From Antedon mediterranea (lineage: Eukaryota > Animalia > Echinodermata): 64,000 nt of DNA. The stretch lies in assembly GCF_964355755.1 (NCBI RefSeq), contig NC_092673.1:22751648-22815647 (forward strand), given 5' to 3'. Below the pieces are notes generated by a model, which ran no database searches, had not been told where the DNA came from, and saw only the letters and a list, made by a program, of their open reading frames with translations. Of this stretch, positions 5,670-51,838 are shown in pieces (the first letter of the stretch is position 1; each line of letters starts with the position of its first letter). The position numbers and the translations under genes are program-made.

Positions 5670-6253
5670 ATACAATAGACCAACCACAGCATTGCACTGT
5701 CATGATTAATGTAAATGAGTTGGAATGACCTGTGTCTCACCGCATGGGCTGAATTGCGCACAAGTGTGTTCGATGTACTAAACAATATTTAATACAAATA
5801 ATAAAAAAACATTTTTAAATGATAAAATGGACAAATTTTAATGGGGATATATTTCAATTGTTAGTGTTTTCCTCCAAATTGGGGACCTTGAAGGTAAATG
5901 CATATCGGCTATACTGTAGATTAAGTCTTCCCCTATCATATCACTCTTTATTCTCTATTCCATTAGTTAATGTAAGAACCAATTCATTTACATTCTTCTT
6001 TAGTGTCTTCAATTTTTCAAAGACTAAAAACATTAGGCTTCAATCAAATCGAGACCTCTTTTAAAAATGCATTAAAATGCAATATAGAAAGTCTATAATG
6101 ATCTATAGAATAGTTATTGGGTTTTGCTGTATATTATTACTAATTATACAAAAATGCATTTTCATTCAGTGGTCCTGAAAAGTGCTTTTGATATAAATAC
6201 GATTGGTTTAGGTTAATACACTGTATTGTCAAAGTTAAAAAAATATTTGATAG

Positions 6254-6512
6254 AGCCTGGTTTCCATTAAAATTGCTACAGCGTTTCCATTAAAATCGCT
6301 ACACGCGCAGATGTCGCCGACACAACCGGGAAGGCTCCACGATTCATCGCAGTCAAATCGGCAAAGTTCAACCATGTTCAACTTTGCCGATTGTGTCGGC
6401 GATGAATCGTATACGCGTACTAAAGCGCTCGCATACTAGATCTCCAATAAATTCTAGCGTTTCCATAGAATCGCCATACTCTGTCGTGTAGCGATTTTAT
6501 GGAAACCAGGCT
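6254..6512. mobile_element. PIF/Harbinger-type MITE
   Basis: TIR AGCCTGGTTTCCAT / ATGGAAACCAGGCT, 3-bp TSD TAG. Confidence 0.85.
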
Positions 6513-8914: not shown

Positions 8915-9463
8915 CAGAGCCATATATAGAGAGAGTTTCGACATTGAATGGATTAGAAGCCATGTTTGTGTCCAACTATTCCTATGTAGCGTATGGAGTT
9001 GAGTCTTTTGTTTTGAAAATGTAAAACGTTCAAAAGGCTTATCGAATTTAATATCAAAACAATCAATTTGTGTAAAGGTTTTTGTTAAAATAATAAAAAA
9101 ATTATAAAGTTACTGCGAACATGATTTAAACAACAAAAATAGCAATTTCGGAACGGCTCTAGTTGTGCGCGTTTAGTTTGTACAGCGATTCTCTATAGTA
9201 ATGCATTGTTTTTACATTTTGTTGTTTAAAATCATGTTCGCAGTAACTTTATGATTTCGTTATTATCTTAACAAAAACCTTTAAACTAATTGATTGTTTT
9301 GATATTAAATTCGATATTTAAAGCCTTGTGAATGTTACACATTTTTTTAGTAAATGACTCGACTCCATACGCTATATAAGCATAGTTGGACACAAAGATG
9401 GCCGGTGTGCACACCATGTGACTTGTGAACGCAATGTCGAAACTCTCTCTATATATGGCTCTG
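8915..9463. mobile_element. Foldback MITE with 8-bp TSD (P- or hAT-type)
   Basis: TIR CAGAGCCATATATAGAGAGAGTTTCGACATTG extending ~200 bp inward. TSD TATAGTGT at 8907-8914 and 9464-9471. Confidence 0.88.
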
Positions 9464-12254
9464 TATAGTGTCAGAGCCATACATATATATATGGCTCTGT
9501 ATAGCGTTTAAGACCAATATAATTCAATTTAATTTAGTAATATAATTTATTATTCAGGAAAATAATAAATTCGCCTTCAAATATTAAATATTTAGTGCAT
9601 TATATCAGTTTACAGTTTCTTTATGCACTGTAAATTTATATTATTTTTACAGGCATAGAAAACCTCTAAATCGCCCAGCAAGTCTCAAAATTTACCCTAG
9701 CAAATTTTTCATAAAAAATGCTAGTTGAAATTTTTAAACTAGTTAATTTATTTGCTTGTTGTATTTTTCTGCCAATTTTTCTTCATCGTTTTGTAGAAAT
9801 CAACTTGCCAAATTGCTCACTTGCTAGTTGGTTTAACAGTAAAGGTTTGCTAGTGGGAAAAAAAATCGAGCTCAACCCAGTGAATAATATAATACAATTA
9901 TCTTTTAAAATGTTGTTAATGAAGGAAGTGAGTCATGAAAGTATACTTTAGACTGTAAAAAAATTTGTAAAAATCAGTTTTGTAAGATAAAATAAATTGC
10001 TATTTGGGAAAGGAAATATTTATGAGTTTTGCATCAATCTATTCTTTCTTAATTAAGAAAATAAAGATTAGGTTGTCTACAAATCCACACAGTGTTTGTT
10101 TGTAATATTTATTGCTATCCACAATACGATACATTGTTGGGACAACTTAAATTTGTTAGTGCGAGGAATTTGTTTGTGGAAAACAATACTCCATCATTTT
10201 ATGAATATTTGAGGATTTCGACTTACCGATTTCTTACAAGAATAATGAAAAGCGAAAACAGAATGTTAATTTGTATATATAAATATTTGTTGATGGATTC
10301 AAACATGTACTACAAATGGAGAGAGGCATTATATACCAATAGATAAAGGTTTTGGTCCTCTCTCCTTCATCTTTTTTTTTTGTGTAATGTATTATTATAC
10401 CATATGGACAATTGTCTGAAATAAAAGTTGAATTGAATTGAATTGAATTATGATTTGAAATTACTAAAATCATACAGAACCTAAATAATTAAACTGTTAT
10501 GGAAGATCAGAGGATAACCCTTTAAGCTGGGATGCTTGTTTCAGAAAGGGTCCTCAACAATTATAAAATGAACATCAAAACATTTGATTAACAACATTAA
10601 CAAAAACATTTTTAAAAATGCAGTGCCGTGCCAACCATGAACTCTGGGGATAATGGACCATTGCACTGGAGCAACCTACTAATCACCAAAAAGATATGCA
10701 CTGGATTCTTTAAAGTGCACACAGGCCAGACGTGTAAAATGGACTTCCAATTTGAATTTTTCTCCGAGAACAATGGTCAGAGACTTGAACCTATGGCAAA
10801 TGTATGGCTATGGTCTGTGCCCCAAGCCACTCAACTAAACTTAAAGAGAAATGCTGTAGTTATACACAGAATAATCAAACAAGCAACATAAAACATAAAA
10901 CCCAATTTCACACACCACTTTGACAATATTAACCTAACTACAGTATATGAAAATCAACTCTATTAGGATTAGCTACAGCATTCAGATTTTATATGATGAT
11001 AAAAACATCTCAAAATAATATCATTTAAATCCAATTCATATTTAGTTAAAATCATGAAAGTGAAATTTTAGATCAATGTTTGCAGTTTGACACAAAGTAA
11101 TCAAAGTTGGATTGTATTGAGTAAAATAAATTTTGTAGAGATGATTAAAATCAAATGAACAGAGATTAAATCGCAATCAGATTTTGACTTGCTGATCGAT
11201 TCTGCTAATCTCTTGTTTTGTTCAGGCGTCAGATGAGTTTTATTGTCAATTGAGGAATATGTATTAAATAGAAAAACCATGTGGGATTTATGTACTGAGA
11301 TTATACAACTACAAATCTTGATTGTTTTTACAGTCAGAGATTATTCCAACAACAAAGTTCAAACTTGTCATTGTTAATATACCTTTTATTACAGTAATTA
11401 TTGCATTATAACTAGCCTAAAAAACAATTGTACATACCCACAAAAAACAAAATTATAGTTGGCTTTTTTTTAATATTAACAAAAATATTTAAGTAAAAAT
11501 AAAATACTGGGTATCCCATGCCCATGATTCCATTTTATGCTGAAATTCCTCTTATTATTTGAAATTTCATAATGTTATAAAAAGATTTAAAAATGCAGAA
11601 ATTAAGTACAAAATGCTATTAAACAGTATTTTTTAGATCTGCTTTTAGAAAGCACACTTAAAAAGTTTTGTAAGCTTTTTAAATAAATATGCTGGTATAA
11701 TTAATGGATTTTGAACATAAAAATCTTTTCTTTAAGGATGCGTTTTATTCTAGTAAATAGATAGAAGTGAATGGATCAAAAGATACTTACATATGTTGTT
11801 CTTTGTTGAAGAACAATAGAGAAGTATGAAAACAATATTGAGTACAAGTTGTATTTGGTAGCAATCGTTTATAAAACTTACAACAGTACAGTCAACTCTC
11901 CTGTTACCGGAAAATATTGGGCTGGCCTTCCCTAGTTTTCAAGCTATTCTCGTGAATGTGTTTTTAATGGTAAAAAAGAATTTAGGACAAACAAGGTGAC
12001 AGAGAAGTGATACCAACAAGGCTTGGAATCATTAAAAACACATTTTTGCGCACGCGATTTTTAAAAAGCAAAAAAAATAAAATTTATTTATGTATACATC
12101 ACATTCTACTCACAATCCTTTGTACATTCTCCGACTTTGAGTCCATTCTGACTTAAAATAACGGTATACGAGCACGTTAAAAATGACAAAATGCACACAT
12201 TAATTGCACAAAAGTACTAAAAATGGTAATGGCCTTTTTAAAATGAATATAACT

Positions 12255-18947: not shown

Positions 18948-19295
18948 ATTTTTTTTATTTATTCAATCGAAACCAACAGCGATAATTACCGCCACTAACA
19001 GGTTTGATAGAAACAAAGCCAGGACCTGTTTAAAGCACCTTGATTGGTCCTAACATTGATCAAGGGCTTCTCTCGTCCAGTGCCCACCTTGACCAGAAGT
19101 CTGAGGCAGATACTAGATACAGGGGCTGCCATAAGAGTCAGCAGTGCTGATTTCAAATGCCTAACGGGACCCAGCTCCATATACAGCATCCGTTATTCCC
19201 AGATGGTCTCCCATCCAAGCTCTAACCAGGCCCAACGTCGCTTAACTTCGGTGATCTCACGAGAACCGGTGTTTCAACGTGGTAAAGCCGTATTC
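18948..19295 (-). mobile_element. 5S rRNA-headed SINE (SINE3-type), full length
   Basis: 19182-19295 is a diverged 5S rRNA (TACGGC..ACCACGTTGAA..GATCACCGAAGTTAAGC..GGGCCTGGTTAG.CTTGGATGGGAGACC..GGGAATA) with no oligo-T terminator. It runs into a ~220-nt body and an A-rich tail; the body recurs at 51634-51838. Confidence 0.88.
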
Positions 19296-20079: not shown

Positions 20080-20866
20080 TAGGGACTTTACAAAACACGA
20101 CGGTTAGGGAAGAACGACAAATATCCTTTGTTTGCTATAGTGTAAAATTGTATACAGCCAACATAGCTGTTTTATTAGTTGCGAACCCTTCGCAAAGATG
20201 ACGACCGGCAGTATCTCTCTCCCTCCCATGTCTGATTGATTGAAATATATATTTAATTATTATTTAATACACCGGGGTAACCCCCTACTCGTCTCGAAAG
20301 ATGTACTAGGTTCTTTTAAAGTGCACACGAGCAAGTTGTGTACACTGGACCTACGGTTTATAGTCCTTATCCGAGAAGACTCGTTCTACCACCAGAACCA
20401 TGGAGTGAGTGAGCCTCGAACCCCTGCCGATGTTATGGCTACGTGATTACGGTTCAACTGTCTTAACCGCTCGGCCACTCACCCACGGCGCGGGCCCTTC
20501 TAAATTGCTTGGCTCTGGTGACAGCATAGGCCTAGCCTTCCTAGCTATGGACTCTTATTCACGCCGCTTTTAACACAGCCATTTTAACCCAATAAAAATG
20601 TTATTTTATTAAACAATTAAATTAGAAGTTCAAGTTTTATTTAGAGTTTTGAAAAGTCCCCGTTTGAACTGTATATTTAAGGTTATACTGTATATACATT
20701 ATTTCTAGTTGTTCTCCGTAAACGGGAAAATCGCAACTTTATCAGTCTCAAAAAGTTAAAGACGACGGAGTTTCAAGCTAAGCTCCGCCAACTTTGTTAA
20801 AGCTCATGCATATATTATTCATGAGCACCGTCCTATGGCTTCCCGTCGTGTTTCGTAAAGTCCCTA
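20080..20866. mobile_element. Academ-like MITE
   Basis: TIR TAGGGACTTTAC(A/G)AAACACGACGG with TAG termini. Flanks ATAC/ATAT (imperfect 4-bp TSD). Confidence 0.65.
20233..20483 (-). mobile_element. Deu-domain tRNA SINE copy (nested in Academ-like MITE)
   Basis: Reverse complement of the 54827 copy, with part of the 3' body deleted. Confidence 0.85.
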
Positions 20867-22592: not shown

Positions 22593-22836
22593 CAGTGGCT
22601 GTGTTTGTGTAGACTAGTACACCGGGGTAACCCCCTACTCGTCTCGAAAGATGTACTAGGTTTTTTAAAGTGCGCATGAGCTATGTGTACACTGGACCTA
22701 CGGTTTATAGTCCTTATCCGAGAAGACTCGTTCTACCACCAGAACCATGGAGCGAGTGAGCCTCGAACCCTTGCCGATGTTACGGCTACGTAATTACGGT
22801 TCCACTGTCTTAACCGCTCGGCCACTCACTCACTCA
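22593..22836 (-). mobile_element. Deu-domain tRNA SINE copy
   Basis: Reverse complement of the 54827 copy, 3' end missing. Confidence 0.85.
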
Positions 22837-23696: not shown

Positions 23697-24535
23697 GGGT
23701 GTGTAGAAAACGACGACCTCGAATTGGACGACCCCAACGACCCGGGCGACCTCGAATTGGACGACCTAGAATTGGACGACCCATAACACGAAACCGACGA
23801 CCCCTATAGCCTAGCCTAGCCTAGGCCTAAGTGTGGTATAACATCCCGAAGCCGAACATAGCCAAAGATCTTTAAACCATACCTTATATAATACTCGCAA
23901 GCAAACAATTGATTGAAAAAATACAGAAATATCGTCATTTGATACTGAATGTGTCAACACGAACAAACGAACAGATATGGAACGCCAAGAGTGCATCATT
24001 AAAACTGCATTCGACTCGATTAAATACATCTCGTCTTCTTATAACGAACAATATAGGCCTACCAAGCAGCGTGTTGTGAACATGTGCATGAGGAGGGCCA
24101 TAAGAAAGCTTTACATTTCACACATGCATTGTATGCGGTCAAACCTTACCCGCTGCTGAAAAGGGGGCCGTTTTGACCTGGTTTGCCATGTTTATGATAT
24201 TTCGTGTGCTAATCGAGTCGAATGCAGTTTTAATGATGCACTCTTGGCGTTCCATATCTGTTCGTTTGTTCGTGTTGACGCATTCAGTATCAAATGGCGA
24301 TATTTCTGTATTTTTTCAATCAATTGATTGCTTGCGAGTATTAAGGTATGGTTTAAAGATCTTTGGCTATGTTCGGCTTCGGGATGTTATACCACACTTA
24401 GGCCTAGGCTATTACCCCTAATAATTAGGGGTCGTCGGTTTCGTGTTATGGGTCGTCCAATTCTAGGTCGTCCAATTCGAGGTCGCCCGGGTCGTTGGGG
24501 TCGTCCAATTCGAGGTCGTCGCTTTCTACACACCC
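23697..24535. mobile_element. MULE/Foldback-like MITE
   Basis: ~325-bp TIRs starting GGGTGTGTAGAAA with GACGACC subrepeats. 10-bp TSD TAGAAAAAAT at 23687-23696 and 24536-24545. Confidence 0.9.
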
Positions 24536-25349
24536 TAGAAAAAATCTGTATACTAAGTGTAATATATTAATATATGTATACCCAGCAAGCAAATACTGTA
24601 CTAGTGGTACTAATAATTATTTCTGGTACAATCCTATCTGCTTTTATTAATTATTTTACGCATGCAGTGTTGTGTATTTGGTTTGCTACAAAACAAATAT
24701 ATAGTTGATCTGGTCCTAATATTTAATAAGACTCTTGGCGGACAGGCAGGCATTATTAGGACCAAGCCAAAACTGTATAAGGCCTAGAGTTCTCTAAGAG
24801 GCTAGGCTTAGGTACTAGGCCCTACTAGAGGATAGGCCAGCCCTCTACTAGGCGCTGCATCATATTATAGCCTTATAAGTTATAGGCTAGTAGGAGGCCT
24901 CTTCTAGCTAGGCCTAGCTAGGCCTAGGCCTAGCCTAGTAGAAGGCCTAACAAATTATAATTTTTATCGACACGACTAATAATACTATTCTAGTACTATA
25001 GCCAAACATATGTATGGTTGATCATCCTGTATGTAATTAAAAATGAGGTATTATTATTGATAATAAATGATAAGTTTATAAGGAATACCTAGCTAGGCCT
25101 AGCTAGAAGTATCGAAGCACAGCTTGCTAGCGCCACACATCATGCATGTGGAGGTATATTCAGAGCGTCATTCTGACGACTGGAGCATTCTCTACTGCTC
25201 TACGGAGCGCCATTTATGCCTTTATTAACTTCAATAATAGAAATAGTACTACAGTACGGTAACTGCTCAAGTGGACCCAATTTAGCACCAGGGTAGCACA
25301 GTGATATAAAATAGAAATAAAAGTCACTACTTTTAATATCGTTTCGTAT

Positions 25350-26135
25350 ATACCCATATCACAAACTGACAAACAGAAACATCTTGGCATTCACATTGAT
25401 TCAAATTTATATTTTTCTTTTCATGTAAATAAACTCCGTTCCAAATGGGCTTGTCCATCTCCATCTTATCGCATGCTCGGTCATTTCATTAATAAACACA
25501 CATCTATACTCCTCTATAACACTATAATCCTCCCACACATTGACTATTGATGTAGTGTTTGGGGAATCAGATCGAATATTGACCGAATACAGACCATTCA
25601 AAATAGAGCACTTCGCATTATCCTTAAAGCTCATCCTCTCACACCACGAACTAACATTTACAACACCTTAAATCTTCATACAGTCCAAGATCGCATGCAT
25701 CTACAACTGGGCTGCCTTGCCTACAGGTCTGCAAATGGTCTTGCTCCGGAATACCTTGCCCTGCGTCTTGCCAGAATTCCAAATCATCGATGTACCCAAA
25801 GTGTCAGTGAGAGGAAATTTGTCGTCCCTTTCCCTAAAACAGAAACTTTTAAGAACAGCTTCATCTATAGAGCACCAACATACCTGAATTTGCTACCCAC
25901 CAAACTAAGAAATGCGGTAACAATAAATAATTTTAAGTCTGCTCTAAAAAAATATTTAATCCCAAAAGAAAAAACTCAACTTTTTGTATAGTATTGAGAC
26001 TATATTTTTGTATTTAAGTACATAATATATATTTTATATTTTTTTAACATAGTTCATCCGTTTTTTCATATATGTTTTTGACTGTCTGCATATGTTGCTT
26101 AGGGTCACCCTCACAAAATAAGGTTTAATAAAAAA
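25350..26135 (+). mobile_element. 5'-truncated LINE (CR1/L2-group) 3' fragment inserted in the left arm of the 9.8-kb element
   Basis: PISQTDKQKHLGIHIDSNL (RT thumb KxLGxxxD) at ~25354. ORF 25695-25991 (NGLAPEYL...KTETFKNSFIYRAP..LNLLP..FKSALK) is a typical LINE ORF2 C-terminus. A-rich tail at ~26127-26140. Confidence 0.85.
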
Positions 26136-26410
26136 ATAAAATAGAAATAAAGTCACTAAATTTTAATATCTTTTCGTATGTTAATACAATGTGCTCAAGT
26201 GGACCCAATTTGGCCCCAGTGGAGCACAGTAATATAAAATAGAAATAAAGTCACTACATTTTAATATATTTTCGTATAAAACACTGTGCTCAAGTGGACA
26301 CAATTTGGTACCAGGGGAACAGTGATATAAAATAGAAATAATGTCACTCAAGTTTCAATCTTTTCGTATGTTAATACACTCTGCTCAAGTGGACCCAATT
26401 TGGCACCAGT
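26136..26410. repeat. 97-bp subterminal repeat, ~3 copies (left arm, inverted relative to right arm)
   Basis: GTGCTCAAGTGGACCCAATTTGGCACCAG...GATATAAAATAGAAATAAAGTCACT units. Confidence 0.88.
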
Positions 26411-28395
26411 GGATTTTTTTTAAATGGGAAATAATGAATATTGTTTTTATTTTGAAAGAGAGATATTTTGAGGATTGTAAATGTCAAGTTGAACTTTTTT
26501 TAAATCAGAAACAAAGTTGCATGGCATTATTTTCCATTAAATAGACTGCCATAAAACCTCTAAAAGAAGCCCATGTGCTCCTTCATTTTCAATACTCTTG
26601 GGTGGGCTTCTTTTCCACATGGAGTTCTTTTCGAGATTACTTTTGCAAACTAAACGAGGGGAACTGCTAGCTTCCCGCCTGGAAAATATTTTATTTACAT
26701 GATTTGAAAAATCTTCTAATGTAAATAACAACATCAAAATTTAACAGTGTGGCATGTTGACCGCGAATGACTAACATACCATCTTTACCATAATACACCT
26801 GCACAGACTCATTTGCATAACAACGTACGCACATACCAAACTGTTTAAAATAGAGCTACAAGGTACCCGAAAATGACATCTATTATGTTTTCAAACAACA
26901 TGCATAAGAACCTTCAGTGCCCCACCATGCTTGGGGCTGAGCAAAGACAATTTTGGAAAAAAGAGAGCTGTATACAGTAGGTTCCCGCCCGAAAAATGGC
27001 GTTACATAATTTGAATGAAACAAACTATATAAAACTCACCAGGACAATATATGAGCTTGTCCCCGGAAAGTGCACCTATTCATTGAAATATAAAATTAAA
27101 TATTAAGTCTCTACTAGCCCATCCATGGTTGAGGCAGAGCAATAAAAATAGAGCCCAGAAATGCACTTACTTATACTTATTACTATACATAGTCACCTAT
27201 GATAATTATGATAATGTTAAAATTTCAACTATCCAGATGCGACTTCAACATTTTAGGTGGGGTTTTCTACTTTAAAAACTCGACTTCGATGGCCTAGCTC
27301 TGCGGCGGAATTAGTCTAAGCTTTGAAATTGGTCTGGAAATCGGCATCTTTGCAAATGTTCTATATTTGATCTTATTTCACTCTCCATTAACCTCATACA
27401 AAAACCATAGGAGACTATCTCTTTAAAACATGTTTATTCTGGGACGGTGCGGCCATACACACCAACTACTATGAAGAATCGGACATTTCGCTACCAATGT
27501 TGCAACATTGATTAACAAAATCAAAATTTAACAGTGGGGCGCGTTGACCGCGAATGACTAACAATACCATCTTTCCCACTACACCTGCACAAACTCTTTT
27601 GTATAACAACGAACGGCATACCAAACTATGATGAGAGATACATTCTCTTCTCAACACGTAACTCGTAACGAAATAATTAATTCCTTTTTTACATTAAAAT
27701 TGAGGCCGCTAAACATAAAAGTTACGAGATCAAATACATGTAGCGAAAGCCAAAAAAAGAGTAAAAATTGTGCTCTTCTTGCCTCAGCACTAAGGCCCTG
27801 CTTTAGTTTGTGGTGTAACGTGTAATGCTCAGTTTTGAGTGGTATCAGCTGGAGTTCGAACCTCTACGGATATTTTTTTTATGAATATTGGTTTTTTTTT
27901 AAAGAGAGATATTTGGAGGGTTGAAAATGTCAGGCCTGGACAAGTGGACCTTAAATCATAAACAAAAGTGTATGGCATTCATTTTTCCATTAAATAGACA
28001 ACATAACACCCCGAATGTTCCTCATTTGTTAGTAAACTTTTATTCACAACATAATATCAGTAGGCCTACAATACAATATCTTGCATGAAACGGATATTTA
28101 AAAATACACTATAATGTGTAACGGTAGAATTATAATTATAATGTAAAAGATTAACAAAATAAAAATTCAACACTGTTGTGTGTTGATCGCGAATGACTAA
28201 CAATACCATCTTTCCCACAGCACATGTGAACACTCATTTGCATAACAAACGCACGGCATACCAAACTACGATGAGATAAAATTAATTCTCTTCTAAACAC
28301 GTAACGAAGAGAATTAATTCTATCTTTTTACATTAAAATAAATTGAGGGCGCTAAACATCAAATTTAAACCATCAAAGAAGTTGACGAGAGCCAC

Positions 28396-28653
28396 AAAAA
28401 AAAAGATGGTAAATGTGCTCTCCCTGCCTCAGCACTAAGGCCCTGCCACAGCCTTTTGGGATCGTTTCCACCACATCACCAGATGCATTGATGTTGTCGC
28501 CTCATGATGTGTGGTGGAAAGGGGACGTATGATCTGTGAACCCCAAACACAGTGGCTCACATAGCCTTAACTCTATTCCACCGACCAGCGTGGGAATCGA
28601 ACCCACGACATACGTGTGTTAACACGACGCTCAGACGACTGAGCTAACTGATC
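28396..28653 (-). ncRNA. Putative Pol III RNA: tRNA-Ile(AAT)-like head (28582-28653) plus nested hairpin plus oligo-T, copy 1
   Basis: GATCAGTTAGCTCAGTCGTCTGAGCG...GTGGGTTCGATTCCCACGCTGGTC has A box, B box and acceptor/D/T stems with a 6-nt anticodon loop. No T4 run until the terminal T9. Confidence 0.65.
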
Positions 28654-28747
28654 ATTTTGGTTTTAGCAAGGTTAATAGAATATTTATGACGTAATGATGA
28701 ATTACGTAATACAGTACACGTATAAATAGACTATTATCAGCTGTTCA

Positions 28748-28833
28748 GTCATGTTCCAGTTTGTGATGCAACGGGTAATGTTCAGTTTTGAGTGCTATCA
28801 GTTGGGGTTCGAACCTAGACGGATATTTTTTTT
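28748..28833 (+). ncRNA. Short A-box/B-box Pol III-type RNA, copy 1
   Basis: TATAAATA at 28721, degenerate A box TGATGCAACGG, B box GGTTCGAACC, T8 end. Confidence 0.4.
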
Positions 28834-30107
28834 ATGAATATTGGTTTTTTAATTTTTTATTTTGTATGGCATTCACTTTTCCATTAAATAGACACCATAA
28901 AACCCCAAAAATAGCCCATGTGTTCCTCTTTTTTTAGTACTCTTGGGTACGATGGGCTTCTTTTAAAAAACGGGTAAGCTTCTTTTCCGCATGGGGTTCT
29001 TTTCAAGATTACTTTTGCAAAATAAAGGAGGGGAGCTTCTAGGTTCCCGCCCGGAAAATTGTATCTTTACATGATTTGAATTTCTAATAAAGATTAGCAA
29101 AATCAAAATTTAACTTTTAAATTTAATTTTGTGGCGTGTTCACCGCGAATGACTAACAATGCCATCTTCCCCATTACACCTGCACAAACTCATTTGCATA
29201 ACAACGCACGGCATACCAAACTGTTTAAAACAACTACAAGGTTCCCAGAAATGACACCTATAGTATTTTGAAACATGATATATAAGAGTCTTCACTCCCC
29301 ACCGTGATTGGGGCTGAGCAAAGACAATTTAAAAAAAATATTTATTGAAATATGAAATTAAATATTAAGTCTCCAGTTAAGCTCACCATGGTTGGGGCAG
29401 AGATAAGAATGAAAGCTTATTCTCCGGAAATTATGAAACGAAATATATAAGTCTTCAGGACCAGCCATACAATGGTGACTGTTTCCCAAGTGTGAGACAT
29501 GCAATGCACGCGGCCGTGAAGGTAACAAAATTATGAAATACAAACAGAGCTAGCACACAAAAGCCTACTTACTAATTTTAATATTTCTATAATTTAGAAA
29601 ACAATTACAATTATCACCTTTGATAATTATAATGTTAAATTTCAACTATCCAGATGCGAATTTTAGGTTGGGTTTTAAAAAACTTGACTTTATATGCTTC
29701 AATTTCGAAGATCTGCTTAAAACATATTTATTTATTTATTCTACCATAAACTTTTATTCACAACATAATATCAGTAGGCCTACAATACAATATCTTGCAT
29801 GAAACGGATATTTAAAAATACACTATAATGTGTAACGGTAGAATTATAATTATAATGTAAAAGATTAACAAAATAAAAATTCAACACTGTTGTGTGTTGA
29901 TCGCGAATGACTAACAATACCATCTTTCCCACAGCACATGTGAACACTCATTTGCATAACAAACGCACGGCATACCAAACTACGATGAGATAAAATTAAT
30001 TCTCTTCTGAACACGTAACGAAGAGAATTAATTCTATCTTTTTACATTAAAATAAATTGAGGGCGCTAAACATCAAATTTAAACCATCAAAGAAGTTGGC
30101 GGGAGCC

Positions 30108-30368
30108 AAAAAAAAAAAGATGGTAAATGTGCTCTCCCTGCCTCAGCACTAAGGCCCTGCCACAGCCTTTTGGGGTCGTTTCCACCACATCACCAGATGC
30201 ATTGATGTTGTCGCCTCATGATGTGTGGTGGAAAGGGGGACGTATGATCTGTGAACCCCAAACACAGTGGCTCGCATAGCCTTAACTCTATTCCACCGAC
30301 CAGCGTGGGAATCGAACCCACGACATACGTGTGTTAACACGACGCTCAGACGACTGAGCTAACTGATC
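30108..30368 (-). ncRNA. Putative Pol III tRNA-headed hairpin RNA, copy 2
   Basis: As copy 1. Head at 30297-30368, terminal T11. Confidence 0.65.
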
Positions 30369-30457
30369 ATTTTGGTTTTAGCAAGGTTAATAGAATATTT
30401 ATGACGTAATGATGAATTACGTAATACACGTATAAATAGACTATTATCAGCTGTTCA
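30369..30457. promoter_or_regulatory. Putative bidirectional Pol III upstream region (present in every array unit)
   Basis: TATTTAT-GACGTAAT...ATTACGTAAT..TATAAATA: outward-facing TATA-like boxes ~27-34 nt from each RNA start, with ATF/CRE-like TGACGTAA and TTACGTAA sites between them. Confidence 0.45.
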
Positions 30458-30543
30458 GTCATGTTCCAGTTTGTGGTGCAACGGGTAATGCTCAGTTTTG
30501 AGTGCTATCAGTTGGGGTTCGAACCTCGACGGATATTTTTTTT
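30458..30543 (+). ncRNA. Short A-box/B-box Pol III-type RNA, copy 2
   Basis: TATAAATA at 30431, TGGTGCAACGG, GGTTCGAACC, T8 end. An internal TTTT is a caveat. Confidence 0.45.
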
Positions 30544-31822
30544 ATGAATATTGTTTTTTTTTGTTTTTTTTTTATTTTGTATGGCATTCACTTTTCCATT
30601 AAATAGACACCATAAAACCCCAAAAATAGCCCATGTGTTCCTCATTTTTTAGTACTCTTGGGTACGATGGGCTTCTTTTAAAAAACGGGTAAGCTTCTTT
30701 TCCGCATGGGATTCTTTTCAAGATTACTTTTGCAAAATAAAGGAGGGGCCGGAGCTTCTAGGTTCCCGCCCGGAAAATTGTATCTTTACATGATTTGAAT
30801 TTCTAATAAAGATTAGCAAAATCAAAATTTAACTTTTAAATTTAATTTTGTTGCGTATTCACCGCGAATGACTAACAATGCCATCTTCCCCATTACACCT
30901 GCACAAACTCATTTGCATAACAACGCACGGCATACCAAACTGTTTTAAACAACTACAAGGTCCCCAGAAATGACACCTATAGTATTTTGAAACATGATAT
31001 ATAAGAGTCTTCACTCCCCACCGTGATTGGGGCTGAGCAAAGACAATTTAAAAAAAATATTTATTGAAATATGAAATTAAATATTATGTCTCCAGTTAAG
31101 CTCACCATGGATGGGGCAGAGATAAGAATGAAAGCTTATTCCCCGGAAATTATGAAACGAAATATATAAGTCTTCAGGACCAGCCATACAATGGTGACTA
31201 TTTCCCAAGTGTGAGACATGCAATGCACGCGGCCGTAAATTATGAAATACAAACAGAGCTAGCACACAAAAGCATACTTACTAATTTTAATATTTCTATA
31301 ATTTAGAAAACAATTACAATTATCACCTTTGATAATCATAGGCCTAATGTTAAATTTCAACTATCCAGATGCGAATTTTAGGTTGGGTTTTAAAAAACTT
31401 GACTTCACATGCTTCAATTTCGAAGATCTGCTTAAAATATATTTATTTATTTATTCTACCATAAACTTTTATTCACAACATAATATCAGTAGGCCTACAA
31501 TACAATATCTTGCATGAAACGGATATTTAAAAATACACTATAATGTGTAACGGTAGAATTATAATTATAATGTAAAAGATTAACAAAATAAAAATTCAAT
31601 AGTGTTGTGTGTTGATCGCGAATGACTAACAATACCATCTTTCCCACAGCACTAGTGAACACTCATTTGCATAACAAACGCACGGCATACCAAACTACGA
31701 TGAGATAAAATTAATTCTCTTCTGAACACGTAACGAAGAGAATTAATTCTATCTTTTTACATTAAAATAAATTGAGGGCGCTAAACATCAAATTTAAACC
31801 ATCAAAGAAGTTGGCGAGAGCC

Positions 31823-32082
31823 AAAAAAAAAAGATGGTAAATGTGCTCTCCCTGCCTCAGCACTAAGGCCCTGCCACAGCCTTTTGGGGTCGTTTCCACC
31901 ACATAACCAGATGCATTGATGTTGTCGCCTCATGATGTGTGGTGGAAAGGGGGACGTATGATTTGTGAACCCCAAACACAGTGGCTCGCATAGCCTTAAC
32001 TCTATTCCACCGACCAGCGTGGGAATCGAACCCACGACATACGTGTGTTAACACGACGCTCAGACGACTGAGCTAACTGATC
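31823..32082 (-). ncRNA. Putative Pol III tRNA-headed hairpin RNA, copy 3
   Basis: As copy 1. Head at 32011-32082. Confidence 0.65.
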
Positions 32083-32171
32083 ATTTTGGTTTTAGCAAGG
32101 TTAATAGAATATTTATCACGTAATGATGAATTACGTAATACACGTATAAATAGACTATTATCAGCTGTTCA

Positions 32172-32257
32172 GTCATGTTCCAGTTTGTGGTGCAACGGGT
32201 AATGCTCAGTTTTGAGTGCTATCAGTTGGGGTTCGAACCTCGACGGATATTTTTTTT
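32172..32257 (+). ncRNA. Short A-box/B-box Pol III-type RNA, copy 3
   Basis: As copy 2. TATA at 32145. Confidence 0.45.
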
Positions 32258-33535
32258 ATGAATATTGTTTTTTTTTGTTTTTTTTTTTATTTTGTATGGC
32301 ATTCACTTTTCCATTAAATAGACACCATAAAACCCCAAAAATAGCCCATGTGTTCCTCATTTTTTAGTACTCTTGGGTACGATGGGCTTCTTTTAAAAAA
32401 CGGGTAAGCTTCTTTTCCGCATGGGATTCTTTTCAAGATTACTTTTGCAAAATAAAGGAGGGGCCGGAGCTTCTAGGTTCCCGCCCGGAAAATTGTATCT
32501 TTACATGATTTGAATTTCTAATAAAGATTAGCAAAATCAAAATTTAACTTTTAAATTTAATTTTGTGGCGTGTTCACCGCGAATGACTAACAATGCCATC
32601 TTCCCCATTACACCTGCACAAACTCATTTGCATAACAACGCACGGCATACCAAACTGTTTTAAACAACTACAAGGTCCCCAGAAATGACACCTATAGTAT
32701 TTTGAAACATGATATATAAGAGTCTTCACTCCCCACCGTGATTGGGGCTGAGCAAAGACAATTTAAAAAAAATATTTATTGAAATATGAAATTAAATATT
32801 ATGTCTCCAGTTAAGCTCACCATGGATGGGGCAGAGATAAGAATGAAAGCTTATTCCCCGGAAATTATAAAACGAAATATATAAGTCTTCAGGACCAGCC
32901 ATACAATGGTGACTATTTCCCAAGTGTGAGACATGCAATGCACGCGGCTGTAAATTATGAAATACAAACAGAGCTAGCACACAAAAGCATACTTACTAAT
33001 TTTAATATTTCTATAATTTAGAAAACAATTACAATTATCACCTTTGATAATCATAGGCCTAATGTTAAATTTCAACTATCCAGATGCGAATTTTAGGTTG
33101 GGTTTTAAAAAACTTGACTTCACATGCTTCAATTTCGAAGATCTGCTTAAAATATATTTATTTATTTATTCTACCATAAACTTTTATTCACAACATAATA
33201 TCAGTAGGCCTACAATACAATATCTTGCATGAAACGGATATTTAAAAATACACTATAATGTGTAACGGTAGAATTATAATTATAATGTAAAAGATTAACA
33301 AAATAAAAATTCAACAGTGTTGTGTGTTGATCGCGAATGACTAACAATACCATCTTTCCCACAGCACATGTGCACACACATTTGCATAACAAACGCACGG
33401 CATACCAAACTACGATGAGATAAAATTAATTCTCTTCTAAACACGTAACGAAGAGAATTAATTCCCTTTTTTGTACATTAGAATAAATTGAGGGCGCTAA
33501 ACATAAAATTTAAACCATCAAAGAAGTTGAGAGCC

Positions 33536-33782
33536 AAAAAAAAAGATGGTAAATGTGCTCTTCCTGCCTCAGCACTAAGGCCCTGCCACAGCCTTTTGGG
33601 GTCGTTTCCACCACATCACCAGATGCATTGATGTTGTCGCCTCATGATGTGTGGTGGAAAGGGGGACGTATGATCTGTGAACCCCAAACATAGCCTTAAC
33701 TCTATTCCACCGACCAGCGTGGGAATCGAACCCACGACATACGTGTGTTAACACGACGCTCAGACGACTGAGCTAACTGATC
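33536..33782 (-). ncRNA. Putative Pol III tRNA-headed hairpin RNA, copy 4 (12-nt internal deletion)
   Basis: Head at 33711-33782. Lacks CAGTGGCTCGCA (plus-strand reading) near 33690. Confidence 0.55.
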
Positions 33783-33871
33783 ATTTTGGTTTTAGCAAGG
33801 TTAATACAATATTTATTACGTAATGATCAATTACGTAATACACGTATAAATAGACTATTATCAGCTTTTCA

Positions 33872-33955
33872 GTCGTGTACTTGGTGGCGTAACGGGTAAT
33901 GCTCAGTTTTGAGTGCTATCGGCTGGGGTTCGAACCTCGACGGATATTTCTTTTT
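33872..33955 (+). ncRNA. Short A-box/B-box Pol III-type RNA, copy 4 (best A box)
   Basis: TATA at 33845, A box TGGCGTAACGG, B box GGTTCGAACC, T-rich end. A fifth diverged copy lies at ~27803-27880. Confidence 0.45.
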
Positions 33956-34043
33956 AATATTGTTTTTTTTTTAAATAGAGATATGTGACACTGTATTGTC
34001 GAACATGTATGATACCATACCGGTAAGTATTCAAATATGCTTA

Positions 34044-34822
34044 ATACGAAAAGATATTAAAATTCAGTGACTTATTTCTATTTTATATCACCGTGCTCCA
34101 TTGGCTCCAAGTTGGGTCCACTTAAGCACAGTGTATTAACATACGAAAAGATATTAAAATTCCGTGAATTATTTCTATTTTATATCACTGTGCTCGCCTG
34201 GTGCCAAATTGGGTACACTTGAGTACATTGTATTAAAATACGAAAAGATATTACAATTCAGTGACTTATTTCTATTTTATATCACTGTGCTCCACTGACG
34301 CCAAATTGGGTCCACTTGAGCACAGTGTATTAAAATACAAAAAGATATTAACATTCAGTGAATTATTTCTATTTTATATCAATGTGCTTCCCTGGTATCA
34401 AATTGGGTCCACTTGAGCACAGTGTATTAAAATACGAAAAGATATTAAAATTCAGTGACTTATTTCTATTTTATATCACTGTGCTCCCCTGGCTCCAAAT
34501 AGGGTTCAATTGAGCAAAGTGTATTAAAATACGAAAAGATATTAAAATTCAGTGACTTGTTTCTATTTTATATCACTATGCTCCCCTGGCTCCAAATTGG
34601 GTCCACATGAGCACAATGTAATAACATACGAAACGATATTAAAATTAGTGACTTTATTTCTATTTTATATCACTGTGCTCCACTGGCTCCAAATTGTGTC
34701 CACTTGAGCACAGTGTATTAGCATACGAAAAGATATTAACATTCAATGACTTGTTTCTATTTATATCACTGTGCTCCACTGGCTCCAAATTGGGTCCACT
34801 TGAGCACAGTGTATTAACATAC
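34044..34822. repeat. 97-bp subterminal tandem repeat, ~8 copies (right arm)
   Basis: ATAC(G/A)AAA(A/C)GATATT recurs at 34044, 34141, 34238, 34335, 34432, 34529, 34626 and ~34723. Reverse-complement copies lie at ~25262-25348 and ~26136-26410. Confidence 0.92.
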
Positions 34823-35282
34823 GGTGCTAAATTTGGTCCACTGAACCAGTTACCGTAGTACTATTTCTATTTCGGAACTAAATAAAGGCATAAATGGCGC
34901 TCCATAGAAGTAGAGAATGCTCGATCGTCGAAATGATGCTCTGAATATACCTCGCATGTGTGTGTGTGTGTTTTTGTTTACGTTTTGTAACACGTGCTCC
35001 AGTAGTAGTATAGCGCCGCTAATCTTTGGTGGCGCTATATCCGAGTCTTTTCCCGTTGTTAACGTACGTATCGGTGGTAGGCCTAGCCTAGCTAGCCTCT
35101 AGACCTAGGCCTACTGTACAGGTTTTCAAGTTTAATTACATTTTCTAGTAGCTAGCTAGGATACCCTATATATATATATATAGTAAGTAGTAGTAGGCCT
35201 AGCTAGTAGGCCTAGCCAGGCTAGGTAGGCTAGCCAAATGTCAATGACGGAATGTAGGCCTGCCCTTGGGCCTACTAGCTAG

Positions 35283-37310
35283 GGATGCTAGTCAAGTCGC
35301 CCCATCGCAAAGTCGCCCCATACAAAGTCGCCCCTTACACAGTCGCCCCATCGCAAAGTCGCCCCAAAACAAAGTCGCCCCGACACAGTCGCCCTATCGC
35401 AAAGTCGCCCCATCGCAAAGTCGCCCCAACGCAAAGTCGCCCCATCGCAAAGTCGCCCCATCACAAAGTCGCCCTATCGCAAAGTCGCCCCAAAACGTTA
35501 AAAAATAGTTTACAAGTGCGTAAAATGTTGCAATGATACACAAAATAACACAGAACGTGTAGGCATAAAAGGGGAAGCCCCGCCATGTAGTCTCAGGTCA
35601 CACGATCGGCACGCACCCCCATATCAGAGAGGAAGCCCCCGACTAATCACTCGGTCGCACTCCGCGGTCGCACACTCTAACGTGCTAGCTTACCAGAGGG
35701 AAACCCCCGTAATTACTCCGCCGTTGCCGTTGTCGCACTCTACAACGCACCATCTGAAGATGGGGAAACCCCGCCAGAGTTTTACGATGATATCATCAGT
35801 CGCGTTCGAAATCGGTCGCGATAAAATGATGTTATACGATCTAGATTATTTTTACTTTGGTCGATGAATATTTATTATTATTATTAGGCCTATATTAATA
35901 ATTGATTTTTGTTTTTATTTTACAGGTCAGTAGGTCTATGATGAGAAAGATGTGTGGCTTAAAAAATGACAATTTGTAAACATAGTTTAAGATATAGTAT
36001 TATCCAGCATAATGTCATTTAACAGTACATAATTATTTAAATGTGAAATATTTTATAGGAAACGTAGGCTACGTCTGTGTCTTTTATTTTATATGCAACA
36101 AATTACGTAAAACAATTCATTTATAAACATTCAGTTTACTATTATATACATAGTATTACAGTGAACATTGATTGTAAGACTCCTGGAAAGGCAATCCCAT
36201 CATTATATCCCATTATAAAATTGCATCATATCACCACTATATGTCGTAAATGATAACGTGCGTGTGTGTATTTGTCGTACGTCCGTGTACGTATTATTCC
36301 GTGCCTCTTCACTGTCTTGTTTAATTTAAAATTAAATAAACACCTGATATGAGGATATTTATTAGGCATTATAATTAGAATGTTCTATAACCAAAAGGAT
36401 TGAAAAAAATTTCTTCAGTAAAATGATCATTGTGCTGTTGAATAAAAGGCGACTCGCCATCTGAAACATTCTCTGAATCCAATCGGAGCTGCGCCTTCTG
36501 GTATCTGTTTCCTCACAGCTGCTACGTCTTTCTGCTGACCGTCGGGGATTCCCCTTTTTAAAAAACACGCACACGATACTGTACGATGGTTTTTCCATGG
36601 TCAAAATGTCGCGTTTTAATTTTACTAATACTTGCATGTAAAACAATCATATTCATTTTGAAAAGTCATTATAAAATTAAGACACATAACTTGTCAATAA
36701 ATGCAAAATGATCAATAAGTAGCCTATAACACTCGTCTTACAACACTGTTATTGTTTTAACTACTGTAAATCTATACGAAGGCCTACTACACATTTATAC
36801 ATTTATTATAGGCTATTATCCTAAAAAATGAGCTGGTATCGCGTAGGTTGAAGAAATTGTAATTGTGGCTCTGGTAACTAATTTTAAAATCATATTAAAT
36901 TAACATTTTCGAAACTATAAATCAGGGATAATCTTTTTAAAACTTTCAAACAAGGGACTATTTTTTTAATGATTTTTAAAAAGCACATCACTCCATTAAA
37001 ATCTGTAAAATACAAATTAAAACACATATTATGTATATAATAGGATAAACATTAATGTATACGACATTCAAAGTAACAACGCAATCGATGTCAAACGCAA
37101 CCGATATGATTAAAACCGTGGGCGACTTTGCGATTGGGCGACTTTGCGTTGGGGCGACTTTGCGATGGGGCGAATTTGCGATGGGGCGACTTTGAAATGG
37201 GGCGACTGTGCCGGGGCGACTTTGTTTTGGGGCGACTTTGCGATGGGGCGACTTTGTATTGGGCGACTTTGTATGGGGCGACTTTGCGATGGGGCGACTT
37301 GACTGGATCC
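35283..37310. mobile_element. MULE/Foldback-like non-autonomous element
   Basis: Inverted arrays of ~16-bp CAAAGTCGCCCCATCG at both ends. 9-bp near-TSD (A/C)CTAGCTAG. Confidence 0.85.
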
Positions 37311-37851
37311 CCTAGCTAGAGGGCTAACCTGTGCCCTGCCTACTAGGCCCTATCTATATACTAGGCTGGCCGGTCCTAGCTTGCTTGGAAGCTGGGCTTT
37401 CTAGCCTATACTATGGCTTATATCTACTACCCAGCCAGTCCATATAGTAGTAGTCCATCTGAGATACTACCCACCCAGTCCATAAATTATAAAAAGGACA
37501 TAAAAACATGTCATTTTGTAATTAAATTAAATAAAATAATTAATAAATTAAATAAACGTGTGATGAATAGAAAAGGCCTAGCTAGGCCTACATACAAACA
37601 AATAGAAATTGTTTCGTCTAATAAAAAATTGTAAATTTTGGACCAATATCTTCTAAAATAGTCGCCGAGTCGAAATTTCCCATCCCATCAGGATTTCTTA
37701 GGTGAAGTTTTCATAAATTCTCCCAAATATTATAAAAATCACTGCATCTAATCTCTTCATTATTGAGCTATGTGGTTTAGATTAAATTACAAATAATAGC
37801 AACTTCTTTATTTAACATTAGATGAACATATCTTGCCAAGCCAGTTAAATC

Positions 37852-38663: not shown

Positions 38664-39540
38664 ATGGTGAGTGTACTTCGCCCAGAGACATCCACTCTTA
38701 TTCTACATGAGATTCTCAGCCAATGTATTAAGGAACCTCAACCACAAATGGAACGGTTTTTAGCAGACATTGTCAGCGGTATTCTACCTGATTCTCTATC
38801 TAAGTCACATCCAGATGTTTTATCCAATCAAAGATCTGCTGTGAGTTTTCACCAGTTGAAATGGAAAAACTTGCTTTTATTCTATAACATGGTTTTCGAT
38901 CGTTTGAGTAAAGGATATAGTGAGTCTGAAAATTGTAATAGTATTTGTAAACTAACCTCATCGTGTCTTTTATGCTTGTTCGATTTTCTGAGCAGTCATC
39001 TAAGACGAGAAATCACAATGATTGAAGATGTGAAGTTTCAAATGGAAGATCGGCTTTATGACATCACAAACACTATGCAAATTTCCACCGACATCCCAAT
39101 ACAGTTTTATCAAAAACTTCAACAGATGTTTCTAGATGAATCAGTTAACAAACCCATCTTTGATAAACTAAGGAATTCTTCTCATTGCATACTGAATGAT
39201 AATCTTCAAAGCTTTTTAGATGATTTCTTATGTAGTTTTAATAGATGCATAGCTGCGTGCAAACTTGTTGACACTTTGCAAAAATCAAATATTGAAAACC
39301 AGGAAAAGGGAAAACTTGGAAAGACGTGCTACTACTTATGGAAATGTTTGAAACCGTTTATTGGAGCACAGGAAAGTAATCTAACAAGTCTTTATTTGCT
39401 TGAGAATGAGTTTGATAAATTTTGCCAAACGGAAAAGACAGGTGAAGCTGCAGATGAAAAGTTGGAACCAATACAGACGATCGAAGATGATTTAAAAGAA
39501 GCAATTTGGAGGGTGGATAACAGACTAATTGGTTATCAAG
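38664..39540 (+). CDS. GEMIN4: Gemin4-like coding exon 2
   Basis: 296-aa ORF, tttgtAG acceptor and GTAAAG donor. Phase 0 in, phase 1 out, matching both neighbours. Confidence 0.85.
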
Positions 39541-39598
39541 GTAAAGCAAAGTAGAACCCATATTATAGGGATACCAACAACGTATCCCTATAATAGGG

Positions 39599-41720
39599 GT
39601 GTCACCTGAATTTAAAACATATATTTCCTCCTGTTCGTTTTATAATTGAAAGTGTCCCTCAATGTGGGTGTCACCTGAATTTAAAACATATATTTCCTCC
39701 TGTTCGTTTTATAATTGAAAGTGTCCCTTAATGTGGGTGTCACCTGAATTTAAAACATATATTTCCTCCTGTTCGTTTTATAATTGAAAGTGTCCCTCAA
39801 TGTGGGTGTCACCTGAATTTAAAACATATATTTCCTCCTGTTCGTTTTATAATTGAAAGTGTCCCTCAATGTGGGTGTCACCTGAATTTAAAACATATAT
39901 TTCCTCCTGTTCGTTTTATAATTGAAAGTGTCCCTCAATGTGGGTGTCACCTGAATTTAAAACATATATTTCCTCCTGTTCGTTTTATAATTGAAAGTGT
40001 CCCTCAATGTGGGTGTCCCTGAGTAGGGGTTGTTAAAACATATATATCCTTCTGTTCATTTTATAATTGAAAGTGTCCCTCAATGTGGGTGTCCCTGAGT
40101 AGGGGTTGTTAAAACATATATATCCTTCTGTTCGTAAATTGAAAGTGTCCCTCAATGTGGGTGTCCCTGAGTAGGGGTTGTTAAAACATATATATCCTTC
40201 TGTTCATTTTATAATTGAAAGTGTCCCTCAATGTGGGTGTCCCTGAGTAGGGGTTGTTAAAACATATATATCCTTCTGTTCGTTTTATAATTGAAAGTGT
40301 CCCTCAATGTGGGTGTCCCTGAGTAGGGGTTGTTAAAACATATATATCCTTCTGTTCATTTTATAATTGAAAGTGTCCCTCAATGTGGGTGTCCCTGAGT
40401 AGGGGTTGTTAAAACATATATATCCTTCTGTTCATTTTATAATTGAAAGTGTCCCTCAATGTGGGTGTCCCTGAGTAGGGGTTGTTAAAACATATATATC
40501 CTTCTGTTCGTTTTATAATTGAAAGTGTCCCTCAATGTGGGTGTCCCTGAGTAGGGGTTGTTAAAACATATATATCCTTCTGTTCATTTTATAATTGAAA
40601 GTGTCCCTCAATGTGGGTGTCCCTGAGTAGGGGTTGTTAAAACATATTATATCCTTCTGTTTGTTTTATAATTGAAAGTGTCCCTCAATGTGGGTGTCCC
40701 TGAGTAGGGGTTGTTAAAACATATATATCCTTCTGTTCGTAAATTGAAAGTGTCCCTCAATGTGGGTGTCCCTGAGTAGGGGTTGTTAAAACATATATAT
40801 CCTTCTGTTTGTTTTATAATTGAAAGTGTCCCTCAATGTGGGTGTCCCTGAGTAGGGGTTGTTAAAACATATATATCCTTCTGTTTGTTTTATAATTGAA
40901 AGTGTCCCTCAATGTGGGTGTCCCTGAGTAGGGGTTGTTAAAACATATTATATCCTTCTGTTTGTTTTATAATTGAAAGTGTCCCTCAATGTGGGTGTCC
41001 CTGAGTAGGGGTTGTTAAAACATATATATCCTTCTGTTCATTTTATAATTGAAAGTGTCCCTCAATGTGGGTGTCCCTGAGTAGGGGTTGTTAAAACATA
41101 TTATATCCTTCTGTTTGTTTTATAATTGAAAGTGTCCCTCAATGTGGGTGTCCCTGAGTAGGGGTTGTTAAAACATATTATATCCTTCTGTTTGTTTTAT
41201 AATTGAAAGTGTCCCTCAATGTGGGTGTCCCTGAGTAGGGGTTGTTAAAACATATATATCCTTCTGTTTGTTTTATAATTGAAAGTGTCCCTCAATGTGG
41301 GTGTCCCTGAGTAGGGGTTGTTAAAACATATATATCCTTCTGTTTGTTTTATAATTGAAAGTGTCCCTCAATGTGGGTGTCCCTGAGTAGGGGTTGTTAA
41401 AACATATATATCCTTCTGTTTGTTTTATAAATTGAAAGTGTCCCTCAATGTGGGTGTCCCTGAGTAGGGGTTGTTAAAACATATATATCCTTCTGTTTGT
41501 TTTATAATTGAAAGTGTCCCTCAATGTGGGTGTCCCTGAGTAGGGGTTGTTAAAACATATATATCCTTCTGTTCGTTTTATAATTGAAAGTGTCCCTCAA
41601 TGTGGGTGTCCCTGAGTAGGGGTTGTTAAAACATATATATCCTTCTGTTCTTTTTATAATTGAAAGTGTCCCTCAATGTGGGTGTCCCTGAGTAGGGGTT
41701 GTTAAAACATATATATCCTT
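39599..41720. repeat. Intronic minisatellite: ~6 x 69 bp then ~23 x ~76 bp
   Basis: GTGTCACCTGAATTT unit at 39599, 39668 and onward. It switches at 40013 to the GTGTCCCTGAGTAGGGGTTG unit. Both share TTATAATTGAAAGTGTCCCTCAATGTGG. Confidence 0.97.
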
Positions 41721-41929
41721 TTTGTTTTACTCTAAAAGTGTCCTCTCAACATAGGGAGTAGAGGTTGGCCGTATTATTAAAATATATATTTCCTCTTTTT
41801 TTTTCTTTTGTCCCCTCAATACTGTATTGGTGCTCTTAAGTAGGGGTGTTAGTTTTAGTGTAACCGGATATGAATTGTGAAATTTTGTTATAATAAATTA
41901 TTGAGCTACAATTTGATTTTACATTTCAG

Positions 41930-51633: not shown

Positions 51634-51838
51634 AACGGGTGCTTTATATCGAGCTGGGGTCCCGTTAGACATTTGAAATCAGCATTACTGACTCTTATGC
51701 TAGCCTCTGCATCTAGTATCTGCCTTTCTTCTGGTGAAGGTGGGCACTGGACGAGAGAAGCCCTTGATCAATGCTAGGACCAATCAAGGTGCTGTTGGTT
51801 TTACGATTGAAATAAATAAATAAAATAAATAAATAAAG
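51634..51838 (+). mobile_element. 5'-truncated copy of the 5S-headed SINE
   Basis: GAGCTGGGGTCCCGTTAG...GGGCACTGGACGAGAGAAGCCCTTGATCAATG...(AAAT)n matches the body of the 19-kb copy. Confidence 0.85.

Follow-up and report, generated by a model that had tools for sequence, protein, structure and literature searches.

Several described DNA transposons share long inverted arms, internal tandem repeats, and non-autonomous copies. Galileo, a member of the P superfamily, makes 7-bp target duplications and includes a copy of 9 kb that has ~140-bp repeats and no transposase (PMC4168063); in Tetris, the repeats grow into arrays (PMC4079207); and Tm1-HH, assigned to Mutator/Foldback, encloses between its arms a conserved hairpin involved in RNA processing (PMC3169594). 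We analyzed a 64-kb stretch of feather-star DNA, hereafter the window, in which a 9.8-kb element of similar construction (positions 25151-34953) carries between its arms a tandem array of paired, predicted RNA polymerase III (Pol III) genes. The sections consulted of the Galileo, Tetris, and Tm1 papers describe neither a Pol III gene pair nor a tandem cassette between the arms, and the open-access literature (subscription journals and Repbase lay outside the search) yielded no DNA transposon with an internal Pol III gene array. The distinctive feature of this element is an intact, high-copy, DNA-amplified tRNA-hairpin gene (predicted) inside a cut-and-paste element.

The element is enclosed by two copies of GCATGTG, and its outer parts are arranged as listed below.

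25144-25150, left target-site duplication, GCATGTG
25151-34953, the element (9.8 kb), between the two GCATGTG copies
25151-25289, plus strand, left terminal inverted repeat (TIR), continuing into the first 97-bp copy at 25264
25264-25349, plus strand, first 97-bp subterminal copy, partial
25350-26135, plus strand, 5′-truncated long interspersed nuclear element (LINE), comprising the end of the second open reading frame (ORF2) with one stop, the 3′ untranslated region, and an A-rich tail
26136-26413, plus strand, left 97-bp array, 2.9 copies, inverted relative to the right array
34043-34823, minus strand, right 97-bp array, 8.1 copies
34823-34953, minus strand, right TIR
34954-34960, right target-site duplication, GCATGTG

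An earlier reading of this DNA (the sequence-only reading) had proposed a foldback element with TIRs, inverted 97-bp subterminal arrays, and a 7-bp target duplication, and all three features were borne out. The two terminal repeats (~135 bp) are identical at 117 of 131 aligned bases with 8 gap positions, and the outermost bases read GAG...CTC. The duplication is exactly 7 bp long, with no possible extension to 8 bp, and would arise by chance with a probability of 1.3e-4 at the local base composition. The 97-bp repeat is unequally represented in the arms, with about 4 copies on the left, where the LINE splits the array, versus 8.1 on the right. Inverted ends, a target duplication, and tandem repeats in both arms thus uphold the foldback assignment. 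An exact-pattern scan of metagenome contigs for the end motif gave no match.

The same reading had seen no credible protein-coding frame apart from a LINE, and this also held. Among 60 stop-to-stop frames of at least 50 amino acids in the element, a single one (25551-25991, 146 amino acids) exceeds 90 amino acids, and it has 3698 relatives at E<=0.001. This frame aligns to the C-terminus of ~1000-amino-acid proteins, and all five of the long relatives scanned for domains, taken from 150 listed, contained endonuclease and reverse-transcriptase domains, which identifies the frame as part of a 5′-truncated LINE. Pfam and PDB searches with the frame itself returned no useful match (the top PDB rows had 0 passing stretches). 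Since no frame besides that of the LINE is longer than 90 amino acids, the element is a transposase-less, non-autonomous TIR element of the foldback type.

Its superfamily is less clear-cut. P elements have ends of the CA type, from which the GAG...CTC ends described above differ. The likeness to Galileo and the P superfamily drawn in the sequence-only reading stands on the shared 7-bp duplication as its sole basis, the ends arguing against it together with a target that fits GTANTAC, as in Galileo, at only 2 of 6 positions (PMC4168063). Mutator-like elements (MULEs) make target duplications of 8-11 bp (PMC6446971), and a Mutator/MULE assignment was rejected because the duplication here is 7 bp and not extendable. 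Dada elements share with the present one a target duplication of 6-7 bp and a link to small RNA genes; they have no terminal inverted repeats and insert into RNA genes (PMC3706591). Dada was rejected in turn, because this element has long inverted ends and carries RNA genes itself, while its flanks gave no Rfam match.

The interior is organized by a short A/T block with six occurrences, one at each inner border and the rest between modules. Its intervals delimit five modules of 1447, 953, 1710, 1714, and 1695 bp, placed head to tail, three of them whole and two shortened.

26437-27884, module 0, decayed; the first RNA gene (RNA1) is reduced to its last 40 bp (27762-27801) and the second (RNA2) is retained
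27884-28837, module 1, shortened through an internal deletion
28837-30547, module 2, whole, 1710 bp
30547-32261, module 3, whole, 1714 bp
32261-33956, module 4, whole, 1695 bp
33956-34042, last A/T border block, which closes the array, with a unique junction to the right arm

Identity is 97-99% for the units at 28033, 29747, and 31462 and 94% for the half unit at 33177; in the decayed unit (26437-27884), it varies by block between 74 and 93%. Terminal redundancy, together with the greatest similarity among the middle copies, is the pattern that unequal crossing-over would give. Of the roughly 4.5 units of 1.71 kb with two RNA genes each that had been proposed, the tandem array was recovered; counted from the A/T block, however, it comprises five modules, and module 0 has no intact RNA1.

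Whole modules contain more than the two RNA genes. Each includes two motif blocks of ~115 bp (for example, 29866-29981 on the plus strand), and eight of the nine blocks in total hold the octamer ATTTGCAT. A further RNA gene was considered for these blocks and rejected, as the four copies folded gave z scores of -0.03 to +1.73 in every case; without an RNA fold, the blocks are likely to be protein-binding DNA. Exact-pattern scans of metagenome and viral contigs for the motif-block pattern found no match. Whole modules also hold an A/T hairpin, a back-to-back pair of A/B-box units, and further repeated motifs resembling Staf/ZNF143 and E2F sites. The window as a whole has 13 A-box/B-box pairs, 8 of which lie inside the element.

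RNA1 is the better defined of the two genes. It is present on the minus strand in four intact copies plus the 40-bp remnant of module 0, each intact copy measuring 238-250 nucleotides up to a run of T9-T11 and consisting of a tRNA-like cloverleaf, a hairpin of ~55 nucleotides, and the T-run.

28396-28653, minus strand, RNA1 copy 1; cloverleaf at 28582-28653, hairpin, T9
30108-30368, minus strand, RNA1 copy 2; hairpin at 30180-30236
31823-32082, minus strand, RNA1 copy 3; hairpin stem with a single change
33536-33782, minus strand, RNA1 copy 4; 12 bp deleted between the tRNA part and the hairpin

The boxes were judged against the A-box/B-box consensus of type 2 Pol III genes. All four copies have an A box at +8, a B box at about +53, and a T-run terminator, so that the predicted genes are of the Pol III type as first proposed. 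The cloverleaf scores 40.9 bits against the Rfam tRNA model (cut-off 29), and tRNA was the only credible family among nine weak Rfam hits at E<=10; none of the ribozyme (hammerhead or other), snoRNA, or miRNA families in Rfam reached its gathering score. The anticodon loop has 6 nucleotides in place of the 7 of a functional tRNA, and ARAGORN finds no anticodon ("???"); a relaxed ARAGORN run made 48 calls over the window and was uninformative. A one-base insertion variant at 28616, whose share of the depth was 18, 24, 93, and 28% in four public sequencing runs, would restore a 7-nucleotide loop with AAC at the anticodon position (read by hand). The complete RNA1 folds with a z score of -2.95, and none of 200 shuffles was equally stable; the hairpin alone, which has the shape of a pre-miRNA, gave -2.88. 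The gene has no A tail and no internal T4.

This layout recalls the TMERs of murine gammaherpesvirus 68 (MHV68), Pol III RNAs of 200-250 nucleotides with a tRNA-like part and downstream hairpins that are cut by tRNase Z and Dicer (PMC4838037). RNA1 matches them in size, cloverleaf, pre-miRNA-like hairpin, and T-run, and the comparison with viral TMER, VA, and EBER loci made at the outset is sound as an analogy of layout only. RNA1, a predicted RNA, differs in having one long hairpin instead of two, identical repeated copies, and a DNA transposon as host. The RNA genes of the element gave no Rfam match to any viral family.

RNA2 occurs in five copies of ~75 nucleotides, each with A and B boxes 43 bases apart and a T-run, and is separated from RNA1 by a spacer that is the same in every module and includes TATA-like and TTACGT(A/C)A motifs.

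27804-27880, plus strand, RNA2 copy 0; predicted unit of A/B boxes and a T-run
28757-28833, plus strand, RNA2 copy 1; A box with one mismatch
30467-30543, plus strand, RNA2 copy 2
32181-32257, plus strand, RNA2 copy 3
33878-33955, plus strand, RNA2 copy 4
28654-28756, spacer of the back-to-back pair, its motifs preceding both RNAs

A whole and a decayed copy of RNA2 gave no Rfam match at E<=10, and no fold signal was found (z scores of -0.99, -0.49, and +0.25). Elsewhere in module 0, a block at 26463-26635 is far deeper than the element's end in two of the sequencing runs (X1 and X6) and has loose ends similar to the TATA region that precedes RNA2. This block is possibly a shorter, very abundant repeat carrying RNA2 alone.

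The abundance of these parts was assessed in public sequencing runs, of which 14 were listed, 12 with part of 24600-29750 and none recorded as RNA. Run X6, whose type was guessed as RNA, covers flank and LINE as the DNA runs do and was handled as DNA. Four runs were compared over 24560-29740; all consist of contigs of short reads, in which summed depth does not equal copy number, and depth ratios were taken at 14 positions among the variant rows listed (40 of 276 and 12 of 113). In X1, two flank contigs have depths of 277 and 297, whereas the end reaches 224,000, RNA1 259,000, and the spacer 103,000-247,000; at the boundary itself, flank depths of ~300-500 give way to more than 140,000 in the end. 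The 97-bp unit is 1.2 million deep in X1, and its depth relative to the end was 5.4, 1.5, 5.6, and 5.6 in the four runs, with six units per end in this copy. The LINE stands at 5,000-11,000 in X1 and at 2-12% of the end's depth overall, which may reflect the LINE's own family. The ends and the RNA pair are thus multi-copy, hundreds of times deeper than the flank.

Relative to the end (25197), RNA1 (28461) had depths of 1.16, 1.06, 0.43, and 1.31 in the four runs, and the spacer (28710) of 1.10, 0.72, 0.22, and 0.94. Contigs join RNA1 to the spacer (X1 and X5) and the spacer to RNA2 (X9). Because the spacer upstream of RNA1 is as deep as the RNA and retroposition cannot copy upstream DNA, the pair is amplified as DNA, in agreement with what the sequence-only reading had supposed. 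A tRNA-derived short interspersed nuclear element (SINE) that inserted into the element and multiplied with its surroundings is improbable on these grounds, even though RNA1 has a tRNA head joined to an unrelated body, a SINE-like length of 250 nucleotides, and a very high depth: it ends in a T-run and not in an A-rich or simple-repeat tail, and the contigs bridge its start to upstream DNA of about equal depth. No copy of RNA1 or RNA2 was found in the window outside the element, although the lack of a dispersed RNA1 in the other 54 kb is weak evidence at such abundance. The same window does contain four dispersed copies of a tRNA-box SINE unlike RNA1 and RNA2.

Since the comparison rests on contigs of short reads, the array or the arms might in principle have been created by assembly. 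We regard this as scarcely credible, because the units differ by 1-6% in a graded manner, the junction between two units is crossed by an X6 contig, and an X1 contig continues from the left flank into the first 26 bases of the end, matching at every base (the bridge rule being 31 bases).

Taken together, these observations lead us to a reading to which we give about an even chance as a whole: a foldback transposon family would carry the RNA pair as a regular cassette, copied as DNA, expanded locally, transcribed by Pol III, and conferring a modest benefit against silencing. The RNA pair and the ends are similar in order of depth, which fits such a family cassette, and it is likely that the pair was copied along with the element family. 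In mechanistic terms, a transposase encoded elsewhere, by an autonomous partner, would bind the 97-bp arrays and move the element. The A/T block at both inner borders would have allowed one module to become five through unequal crossing-over, with the middle copies homogenized. Pol III would make the 250-nucleotide RNA1, and tRNA-processing nucleases would then cut behind the cloverleaf and free the hairpin. As a guess, the pair may be kept for a modest selfish benefit, in which motif-rich DNA bound by Pol III factors and abundant structured RNA would help to resist silencing.

Several results weigh against this reading. The depth ratio is unstable, with values of 0.66, 0.39, 0.11, and 4.94 at 28616, and the DNA just past the RNA1 terminator has 1-17% of the end's depth, with 2-13% for the rest of the unit, so most RNA1 copies lie in another or a more diverged context. 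The 1.71-kb unit is therefore a minority context, and the tandem array looks like a local or subfamily expansion. In the four runs over the compared interval, no contig shown joins the cassette to an arm at another locus. A cut-and-paste element, moreover, moves without any RNA. Sequence conservation of RNA1 among the modules is suggestive only: the 72-nucleotide tRNA head has 0 substitutions among the four copies, and copy 4 is changed at 1 of 236 RNA1 positions versus 16 of 457 non-RNA positions (p 0.017), but three pooled comparisons (5/731 versus 46/3201) do not differ significantly (p 0.14), and tandem copies are not independent of each other. Decay is visible as well, in the loss of RNA1 from module 0, the deletion in copy 4, and the stem mismatch in copy 3. 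Finally, the two RNA genes per unit of the sequence-only reading do exist as a pair, but an unequal one. RNA2 is the weaker candidate, for besides its negative Rfam and folding results, it has a T4 between its boxes, and its divergence, 4.5-9.5% in three of four comparisons, keeps pace with that of spacer DNA.

Much of this evidence would also suit passive capture, under which the module would belong to an independent Pol III tandem repeat, and one subfamily of the element would have picked up a piece of such an array and carry it without benefit. Tandem repeats of that kind have been described in amphibians, where OAX of Xenopus, PolIII/TAN of newt, and Rana/polIII consist of long tandem units with a tRNA-derived Pol III unit and no matching dispersed SINE (PMC10702118). 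The present array resembles them but is enclosed by transposon ends and a target duplication, and each of its units has two divergent Pol III units. Passive capture would account for non-RNA parts of the unit that are far rarer than the RNA pair, as expected of related repeats outside the present layout, for a block at 26463-26635 deeper than the end in X1 and X6, and for the decay in module 0 and RNA2; foldback elements are, furthermore, known to absorb foreign DNA and grow arrays (PMC4168063, PMC4079207). On the other hand, RNA1 at 28461 and the end differ in depth by about twofold at most in each of the four runs. The array, moreover, is closed at either side by one and the same border block, and a variant of the left-junction-type sequence precedes that block in 10 contigs of X1, as for a widely shared junction. 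We consider passive capture a tenable but doubtful alternative.

Retroelements offer a second comparison. In the reviews consulted, mobile elements with Pol III promoters are retroelements, among them the TRIMp3 elements Cassandra, Helenus, and Ajax, which keep a tRNA- or 5S-derived Pol III promoter and sometimes form tandem arrays (PMC10886601, PMC10946416). These need their transcript to replicate, whereas the present element is a TIR element. A tandem of the long terminal repeat (LTR) type, as in terminal-repeat retrotransposons in miniature (TRIM), was rejected: inspection of the unit borders by eye found no TG...CA ends, LTR ends, or primer site.

A more active role for the RNA was considered in light of a short match beside the insertion site.

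25133-25144, plus strand, 12-mer in the flank equal to the 5′ arm of the RNA1 hairpin, abutting the left target duplication

The 12-mer is identical to the hairpin arm in all four RNA1 copies and is the only 12-nucleotide match between RNA1 and the 54 kb of the window outside the element. Such a match was attained by none of 6000 random sites and by 7 of 3000 shuffled RNAs, and its best local score by 1 of 3000 sites. It could thus hint that the hairpin yields a guide that steers insertion, or that the RNA otherwise acts in target choice. We hold this to be very improbable, because the match, with a p of about 0.002 to 0.05, was spotted post hoc at a single insertion, both sequences are CA-rich, and the match rate rises to 1.8-4.7% with the whole unit as search space and to 11.5% with the whole element. 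In addition, one family-wide hairpin could not direct hundreds of different insertions unless their targets share a motif, and no transposase is known for the element. Chance is the likeliest explanation of the match. More broadly, by analogy with TMERs, the family might encode its own Pol III tRNA-hairpin RNA, process it in a TMER-like manner, and use it to spread, either as a decoy for silencing or to guide the choice of targets; we think this unlikely, and its guide form alone more remote still.

The element sits near a host gene. An ORF at 38664-39551 is 100% identical to part of an uncharacterized 1073-amino-acid protein of Antedon mediterranea, which identifies the window as feather-star (crinoid) DNA. 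Exons of this gene extend from 37852 to at least 48489, so that the element lies ~2.9 kb upstream of the first matched exon. The protein has no Pfam family above the cut-off, and one search found no other relative. Within an intron of the gene is a young 76-bp tandem array (39579-41804) with 97% matches.

Other repeats populate the window. A second foldback element lies 330 bp to the right (35282-37311), with G-rich ends, 16-bp subterminal arrays, and no Rfam family inside. Its duplication, CTAGCTA, measures 7 bp, or 8 bp with the left end placed one base further in, and it may share a superfamily with the studied element. A small MULE-like foldback element at 23697-24535 has 15-bp subterminal repeats and a 10-bp duplication. 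A palindromic miniature inverted-repeat transposable element at 8915-9463, with an 8-bp duplication and CAG...CTG ends, is presumably hAT-like. The dispersed family at 20265-20486, 22593-22836, 54826-55138, and 62002-62297, with A/B-box pairs in three copies, is a probable tRNA-derived SINE unrelated to RNA1. A 5S rRNA copy (75.8 bits) within 19034-19295 on the minus strand runs into a body of ~160 bp that recurs at 51634-51793 without the 5S head, and the repeat is a possible 5S-headed SINE. Finally, a partly palindromic repeat family of ~150 bp has eight copies, at 15429, 17107, 19390, 44086, 44558, 45975, 48120, and 63661.

If the cassette is a passenger, the element would represent an ordinary, though well-formed, example of capture with growth of an array. 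The element also illustrates a way in which OAX-like Pol III tandem repeats could originate and be dispersed inside foldback arms. Should the favored reading of a family cassette be true, an intact tRNA-hairpin Pol III gene kept in hundreds of copies would point to RNA- or Pol III-based evasion of silencing, so far known from viruses.

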